Part shown: piece by piece, positions 1-486 of the stretch
Numbering within the stretch: the stretch's first letter is position 1
How the letters are laid out: the number at the start of each line of letters is the position of its first letter
Origin: a virus
Lineage: Duplodnaviria; Heunggongvirae; Uroviricota; Caudoviricetes
Strand: one strand, 5' to 3'
Length of the DNA stretch: 17,213 nucleotides
Virus record (IMG/VR): IMGVR_UViG_2681813004_000008
Span: 1-17,213 of that record
The notes under the pieces: generated by a model
Databases searched by the model: none
What the model was told of the DNA's origin: nothing
The model's input: only the letters and a program-made list of their open reading frames with translations
Made by a program: the position numbers and the translations under genes

Positions 1-137
1 ATAACCTGAATCTGAGGCAGCACCTGGCACGGCTGGGACGGAAGTCGCTGTCGTTCTCAAAATCGGTGGAGCTGCATGACAAAGTCATCGGGCATTATCT
101 GAACATAAAACACTATCAATAAGTTGGAGTCATTACC
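1..137 (+). mobile_element. IS1 partial copy (right end with terminal inverted repeat); window starts inside the element
   Basis: Terminal sequence ATCAATAAGTTGGAGTCATTACC at 115-137 matches the IS1 inverted repeat as I recall it; upstream reading frame encodes the recalled InsB C-terminus. A near-identical inverted copy lies at 17107-17213. Confidence 0.88.
3..122 (+). CDS. insB: IS1 transposase InsB, 3' end only (5' partial)
   Basis: Frame 3 translates to [39 protein letters not shown], stop at 120-122, 15 bp inside the IS1 terminus. Confidence 0.85.
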
Positions 138-303
138 CCATAATGATTAAATCAACAGGACGGGTTCGGAGATAATCGATGGTTATGCGGTAATCATCCG
201 TTTTCAGGACAATCTGCAATTCACTGTTTTTTTGCAACAGAACTTCAATAGACATTCTGATGATAGGATGAGTATCCATAATGATCACCGACGTTGGTTT
301 CAT
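138..303 (-). pseudogene. fimZ: fimZ 5' fragment (response-regulator receiver domain), truncated by IS1 after about 55 codons
   Basis: Minus-strand translation MKPTSVIIMDTHPIIRMSIEVLLQKNSELQIVLKTDDYRITIDYLRTRPVDLIIM matches the FimZ N-terminus as recalled; the frame then runs into IS1 (Gly, stop at 133-135). Confidence 0.8.
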
Positions 304-486
304 AGTTACCAGTCTCATAGGAGCGGACAATTTTCCGTTAGGGCGGTAAATTGTACTTTGATACATGAAAATACGGGTTTTCTTGATTCAGACGCGCAGC
401 GGTGTGTGTTTGTTTGCCGCTATAGCGAAATAAATCAGAAAATCAGACGCGGTCGTTCATTTGTTCAGCAACCAGATCAAAAGCCA

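Follow-up and report, generated by a model that had tools for sequence, protein, structure and literature searches.

A fimZ gene truncated at an IS1 element beside argU and a DLP12-like prophage at the edge of a draft contig

The left end of contig AOTC01000315.1 raises the question of how fimZ, the gene for the regulator of sfm fimbriae, came to end at an IS1 element a few hundred base pairs from a prophage attachment tRNA gene, and whether the missing part of fimZ is still present on the other side of that element. The window analyzed here is this whole contig of 17,213 bp, which belongs to the draft assembly GCA_001447405.1. Between positions 138 and 17106 it aligns colinearly, at 99.6% identity, to the fimZ-argU-prophage locus of E. 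coli R1, and both of its ends lie within IS1 sequences. Our comparison with complete genomes, draft contigs and metagenomes indicates that the feature is an ordinary IS1-made fimZ null allele at a contig edge, which represents a recurrent type of loss in E. coli and Shigella.

The IS1 end and the truncated fimZ gene

The first 137 positions of the window (plus strand) hold the 3' end of an IS1 element, comprising the C-terminal codons of insB, the stop codon and the right terminal inverted repeat, with the remainder of the element lying off the contig. This segment is identical at 137 of 137 positions to an annotated IS1A of E. coli A37, and it also aligns without mismatch to an annotated IS1B of E. 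coli strain 2017.11.01CC. Translation of 3-119 yields the last 39 residues of InsB, which match positions 93-131 of the 131 positions of the Pfam model DDE_Tnp_IS1 (E 2.9e-18), and the insB stop codon occupies 120-122. The 23-bp terminal inverted repeat ATCAATAAGTTGGAGTCATTACC at 115-137 is the exact reverse complement of the IS1 right-end repeat GGTAATGACTCCAACTTATTGAT and forms the boundary of the element. Hence, both parts of the original prediction on this segment, namely that the window opens inside IS1 in the C-terminal part of InsB and that the terminal repeat ends at 137, agree with the sequence comparison.

Immediately next to the IS1 end, the minus strand of 138-303 corresponds to fimZ nucleotides 1-166 and encodes 55 residues that agree at every position with the first 55 residues of FimZ from E. 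coli R1, as expected from the earlier assignment of this reading frame to the first approximately 55 codons of fimZ. The truncated gene as a whole extends over 133-303 (minus strand), because the 55 codons are followed by a glycine codon formed across the junction and by a TAA supplied by IS1, such that a product of 56 amino acids results. The frame had been described as running into IS1, and it does so for just this one glycine codon, the sequence after Met55 being GGG TAA with the stop at 133-135. Alignment to the family model placed the true start of fimZ at the ATG at 303. A longer frame of 77 amino acids at 133-366 consists of the same fragment with 21 extra upstream codons and explains why the right boundary of the feature had been set at 366; the look-up of this 77-amino-acid version returned no record.

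The fragment matches the NCBIfam FimZ equivalog model NF007403 at positions 1-55 of 210 (E 1.4e-30) with a score of 106 bits, compared with a cut-off of 271, and it covers the Pfam domain Response_reg only at 1-48 of 111 positions. Judged by these profile matches, it represents a gene fragment and no functional member of the family. The strength of the IS1 and fimZ matches is far beyond anything that chance would explain. In the NCBIfam alignments the fragment pairs with NarL residues 5-58, so that the next residue, Asp56, falls opposite to NarL Asp59. Asp56, the first residue that is lost, is what we take to be the counterpart of this phospho-acceptor in NarL/FixJ-type regulators. The break thus takes away the phospho-acceptor together with approximately half of the receiver domain, and nothing of the C-terminal LuxR-type (GerE) DNA-binding domain is left in the fragment. 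Since Asp56 and the DNA-binding domain are gone, the allele of this sfm regulator should be null whatever sits past IS1, and it is on this ground that the originally proposed inactivation of FimZ can be maintained.

The arrangement on the other side of the fragment is that of E. coli R1, with fimZ adjoining the divergently transcribed argU. The argU gene, encoding a tRNA-Arg with the anticodon UCU, was located by ARAGORN at 546-622 (plus strand), and its 3' end contains the prophage attachment core. A promoter-like site lies upstream at 487-514 (plus strand; TTGACT, a 16-nt spacer and TATAAT), which is a consensus match only, with 11 of 12 positions agreeing. The identity to a prophage-free genome ends at 624/625, marking the boundary between host and prophage. 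It is followed at 638-1801 (minus strand) by the gene for the intD-type tyrosine integrase of a DLP12-like lambdoid prophage, assigned by the intD annotation of R1 in the 99.6%-identical region and by the Pfam domain Phage_integrase. The distance from the IS1 end is about 350 bp to the predicted argU promoter and about 490 bp to the prophage boundary, which fits the approximate neighbourhood to promoter and attL that had been noticed before. Neither argU nor its predicted promoter is damaged, both have the same sequence as in other strains, and on sequence grounds no effect of the insertion on argU or on the prophage attachment site appears demonstrable.

Origin of the junction: insertion, deletion and other explanations

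The 9 bp beside the IS1 end at 138-146 read CCATAATGA and correspond to nucleotides 158-166 of the fimZ coding strand in codons 53-56. The 137/138 junction is, with high probability, best explained by transposition of IS1 into fimZ at this 9-bp target, which would have left a 5' fragment of 55 FimZ residues plus one glycine and given rise to a null allele by a recurrent kind of loss. The allele would then be one among many independent IS-mediated pseudogenisations of fimZ in E. coli and Shigella, and it is probably neutral or nearly so. If the event was a simple insertion, the 9 bp represent the predicted target-site duplication, whose second copy is situated off the contig. The closest relative that was found, GCA_014391625.1, carries the same prophage variant and its fimZ runs on to nt 393 at a contig end, hence the IS1 insertion at nt 166 seems to be specific for the lineage of the window.

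The original prediction went one step further and stated that the distal portion of fimZ must lie beyond the IS1, which proved to be unsafe. Nine distinct IS1 events at fimZ were read directly in comparison genomes; positions inferred from BLAST were not relied on here, since BLAST span lengths join pieces without a requirement for colinearity and give approximate insertion positions. Simple insertions that keep the distal part of fimZ account for four of the nine events, and the 9-bp duplication was confirmed in three of them, i.e. in strain 2017.11.01CC at fimZ nt 599 (AGCTCTACA), in B19374 at nt 354 (CTGAACGGC) and in GCA_949766815.1 at nt 162 (TTAATCATT); the fourth, in the replicon pEcFELIX533.1, was judged by annotation only. 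The other five events show no duplication. In these cases, found in A37 (fimZ nt 148), HCP6S3_I2 (nt 208), PEC408 (nt 263), PI12 (about nt 393) and 504838 (about nt 444), the other IS1 end adjoins sfmD, sfmA/sfmC or the folD side, and the distal part of fimZ has been lost together with part or all of the sfm operon. Five deletions set against four simple insertions translate into roughly even chances for AOTC01000315.1, and it appears about equally probable that distal fimZ is still present across the IS1 or that a subsequent deletion or rearrangement associated with IS1 has taken it away. Hence, an IS end beside a gene fragment at a contig edge is no proof that the remainder of the gene lies beyond it, given that about half of the comparable cases are deletion junctions.

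It might therefore be asked whether 137/138 is the one side that survived a deletion or rearrangement associated with IS1, an event in which distal fimZ, and possibly the sfm genes as far as folD, would have been lost or moved elsewhere and after which no 9-bp duplication would flank the element. The probability of this reading comes near to one half without fully reaching it. The same structure is seen in the five deletion events just described from complete genomes, deletions next to IS elements that lack target duplications are well documented (PMC11708052), and the IS1 sequences at both contig ends would fit an IS1-rich, rearrangement-prone genome; however, the remaining four events are simple insertions, and so are all elements that lie within 4 bp of the site and are readable at both ends, namely three IS903 copies and the IS1 of GCA_949766815.1. 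A simple insertion predicts a specific distal junction that leads from distal fimZ through the 9-bp repeat into the left end of IS1, in which GTCTATATCCATAATGA is joined to GGTGATGCTGCC, i.e. GTCTATATCCATAATGA is followed by GGTGATGCTGCCAACTTACTGAT. Scans of the GTDB species-representative genomes and of JGI metagenome contigs gave no match to this expected distal junction. The distal FimZ product of 156 amino acids is on record in 158 index blocks, and the source assembly of the window was absent among the matches listed; this product is also made by frameshifts and by other IS events and is thus not diagnostic.

The right end of the window contains a second IS1 sequence at 17107-17213 (minus strand), again the right end of the element (IRR side), which is inverted relative to the first, with 3 mismatches between the two over 107 positions. 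This second copy interrupts quuD, the gene for antiterminator Q (16753-17106, plus strand), at the point where the alignment to quuD of R1 ends, approximately 30 bp short of the natural stop; the open frame continues into the IS as far as 17187, and the Pfam domain Phage_antitermQ is complete. The look-up of the cut QuuD product returned only AOTC01000315.1. This second IS1 also separates Q from any late region that lies beyond.

Two IS1 copies that bracket the window at 1-137 and 17107-17213 are what a composite element of the Tn9/Tn1681 type would show, and the 17-kb segment with the fimZ fragment, argU, the early prophage region and emrE might accordingly be regarded as a Tn1681-type transposon that has moved, or is mobile, as a unit. 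The two copies are inverted and have their right ends pointing inward, only the inner ends being visible. We consider this explanation very improbable. The interior is not found at a non-native site with one target duplication but at its native, R1-like locus, where the ancestral order fimZ-argU-intD is preserved at the left and the colinearity with E. coli R1 shows that nothing has moved. Furthermore, the IS1 copies disagree at 3 of 107 positions, and the two genes that they interrupt are unrelated, as is expected for separate insertions, and neither junction is present in any other context of the gene-position index. Short-read assembly yields contig ends within IS1 as it does at any repeat, hence IS1-bracketed contigs mark assembly break points and are no evidence for a mobile module. 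An equally small chance is given to the explanation that the 137/138 join is an assembly artefact, in which a repeat was joined chimerically to unique sequence. It is true that the join is situated only 137 bp from the end of a draft contig, rests on this single draft assembly (it is unique in the gene-position index) and is absent from other assemblies; but it coincides to the base with the end of the IS1 terminal repeat and lies at a 9-bp target that is used with proper duplications by other elements. A chance join would not keep to both of these boundaries, which makes an artefact unlikely. Transposition of IS1 into fimZ, with or without a later deletion, stays the preferred origin of the junction.

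A 9-bp target in fimZ used by different insertion sequences

The target CCATAATGA has been hit more than once. The look-up of the 56-amino-acid product identified the contig NNXY01000075.1 and a contig of SRR17184625, in which IS1 is inserted at the same fimZ nucleotide in the opposite orientation. These contigs share the identical break point and the identical product with the window, but the left IS1 end adjoins the fimZ fragment, the argU prophage is absent and envY is located beside argU. A derivation of the opposite-orientation IS1 from the copy in AOTC01000315.1 by inversion was considered and rejected, because recombination between IS copies never alters which end of the element abuts the flank; hence, the opposite-orientation copies must stem from independent insertions. 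Moreover, IS903-type elements (IS5 family, IS903 group) occur at exactly the same target in CP041392, CP087564 and GCA_900450495.1, where CCATAATGA is duplicated on both sides. The fimZ break point is the same as in the window and the truncated products are nearly the same; different from the window, both junctions are visible, and they reveal simple insertions that keep distal fimZ. The element of CP041392 points one way and those of CP087564 and GCA_900450495.1 point the other, and the elements of GCA_900450495.1 and CP041392 diverge by about 6% in sequence. In total, at least two IS1 hits in opposite orientations and at least two IS903-group hits, again in opposite orientations, have occurred at this site.

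The use of this site by IS903 looks like a real target preference and not a coincidence. Two complete genomes turned out to have an IS903-type insertion within fimZ proper, and both carry it exactly at CCATAATGA, in a search that was systematic for one orientation only and for a site that had been fixed beforehand by the window. The case of IS1 for a hot spot is weaker. The coincidence of the IS1 insertions came from a search that is able to detect only that position, and none of the approximately 30 IS1 events in complete genomes is located at CCATAATGA in codons 53-56. Other insertions within 18 bp of the site include an IS1 at 4 bp, an IS2 at about 13 bp and an IS1 deletion junction at 18 bp. 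Taking these observations together, the chances are about even that CCATAATGA is a genuine preferred target shared by two unrelated IS families, both of which make 9-bp duplications.

The core CATAATG of the target forms a 7-bp dyad that is centred on the middle of the 9-bp duplication. The 9-bp sequence is present twice in the 5' region of fimZ, at 138-146 and at 276-284 of the window, because the IIMD motif at residues 8-11 and the one at residues 53-56 are specified by the same nucleotide sequence. Insertions were seen only at the copy for residues 53-56 and none at the copy at 276-284. It may be that local DNA structure or nucleoid proteins, and not selection, guide the two transposases to identical phosphodiester bonds. 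H-NS is reported to play a part in the targeting of IS903 (Swingle et al. 2004, as cited in PMC9860058). The fimZ gene is AT-rich and probably bound by H-NS. In this regard, the common IS1/IS903 site could serve as a natural substrate for studying the target choice by transposases that make 9-bp duplications.

The adjacent prophage and the loss of fimZ in E. coli and Shigella

The prophage that follows argU is DLP12-like and lambdoid, and it contains genes for int, gam, bet/exo, kil, a kinase/phosphatase pair, a repressor, O, P, ren, emrE, ybcK-ybcO, rusA and quuD. It has several features of its own. At 3278-4672 (minus strand) bet, with its RecT domain, and exo, with its YqaJ domain, form a single reading frame of 464 amino acids, owing to a deletion of 68 bp relative to R1 that lies at about 3884-3892 and is bounded by short direct repeats. 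The identical Bet-Exo fusion is found in four other contigs, in short or unrelated contexts and in one case in a prophage that is situated elsewhere and has another integrase; hence, it represents a real circulating variant and no assembly error. Near the 3' end of O, at 9753-10000, there is a tandem duplication of 124 bp in perfect register (2.0 copies, 98% match), which shifts the frame of O to give 326 amino acids and abolishes the overlap with P that is seen in R1; judged from the altered frame, it probably cripples the replication of the prophage. Furthermore, a pair of adjacent genes at 5737-7202 (minus strand), between kil and the S24-peptidase repressor, encodes a Ser/Thr protein kinase of the eukaryotic type with 241 amino acids and a PP2C phosphatase with 247 amino acids.

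Regarding the recurrence of the event, IS-truncated fimZ as such is known from Shigella. A search of 5,426 complete E. coli genomes that covered both orientations of IS1 gave no instance of the exact 137/138 junction, and the proximal junction was likewise absent from the GTDB species-representative genomes and the JGI metagenome contigs. In the orientation of the window, 78 of the 5,426 genomes have an IS1 no more than about 800 bp away from the 5' region of fimZ, and 33 have one there in the opposite orientation; overall, IS1 is found at or near fimZ, at many different positions, in approximately 2% of the complete E. coli genomes. At least 36 of the 78 same-orientation genomes have the A37-type junction in common and probably go back to one clonal event. 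BLAST spans further suggest that IS1 insertions of both orientations cluster within about 10 bp at fimZ nt 594-603 or so, close to the 3' end of the gene, one of which was read directly (2017.11.01CC, nt 599).

In further lineages, the 5' region of fimZ is interrupted by IS2 or IS903 or contains 1-bp frameshifts. Several of them display independent 1-bp frameshifts in short homopolymer runs at about codons 35-52 of fimZ, alongside split sfmD/sfmH genes. The sfm-fimZ cluster as a whole is decaying by many routes. An IS1-split fimZ together with argU was also observed on NZ_CP137697.1, the 'plasmid' pEcFELIX533.1 of 128.8 kb, in which the 24.7 kb that were fetched form a colinear chromosomal block from purE to cusC. 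The idea that its fimZ::IS1-argU region is an IS1-mobilised module was rejected in view of this long colinear purE-cusC block; the replicon is either an F-prime-like element or mislabelled or misassembled.

Decay of the sfm fimbrial cluster and of its regulator is widespread in E. coli and Shigella, and fimZ::IS1 is mainly of use as a strain marker. The cluster and its regulator are cryptic in K-12. The prophage of K-12 shares with the window the argU-intD arrangement as well as emrE, ybcK, ybcL, ybcM, ybcN, ninE, ybcO, rusA, ylcG and quuD, whereas the prophage of AOTC01000315.1 has a fuller early region than DLP12 of K-12, including gam, bet-exo, kil, the repressor, O, P and ren. In K-12, fimZ is intact and DLP12 more deleted. 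The IS1 events in complete genomes, for example those of 2017.11.01CC, B19374, A37, PEC408 and PI12, resemble the window in the element, the gene and the outcome, a 5' fragment of fimZ beside argU that is annotated as a pseudogene, but the breaks of such events are found at fimZ nt 148, 208, 263, 354, about 393, about 444 and 599, compared with nt 166 here. In S. sonnei fimZ is truncated by IS2, and in S. flexneri 2a 2457T it is a pseudogene (PMC8743557). These Shigella pseudogenes represent the loss of the same regulator by IS insertion or mutation during genome decay, although the IS element and its position differ from those in AOTC01000315.1.
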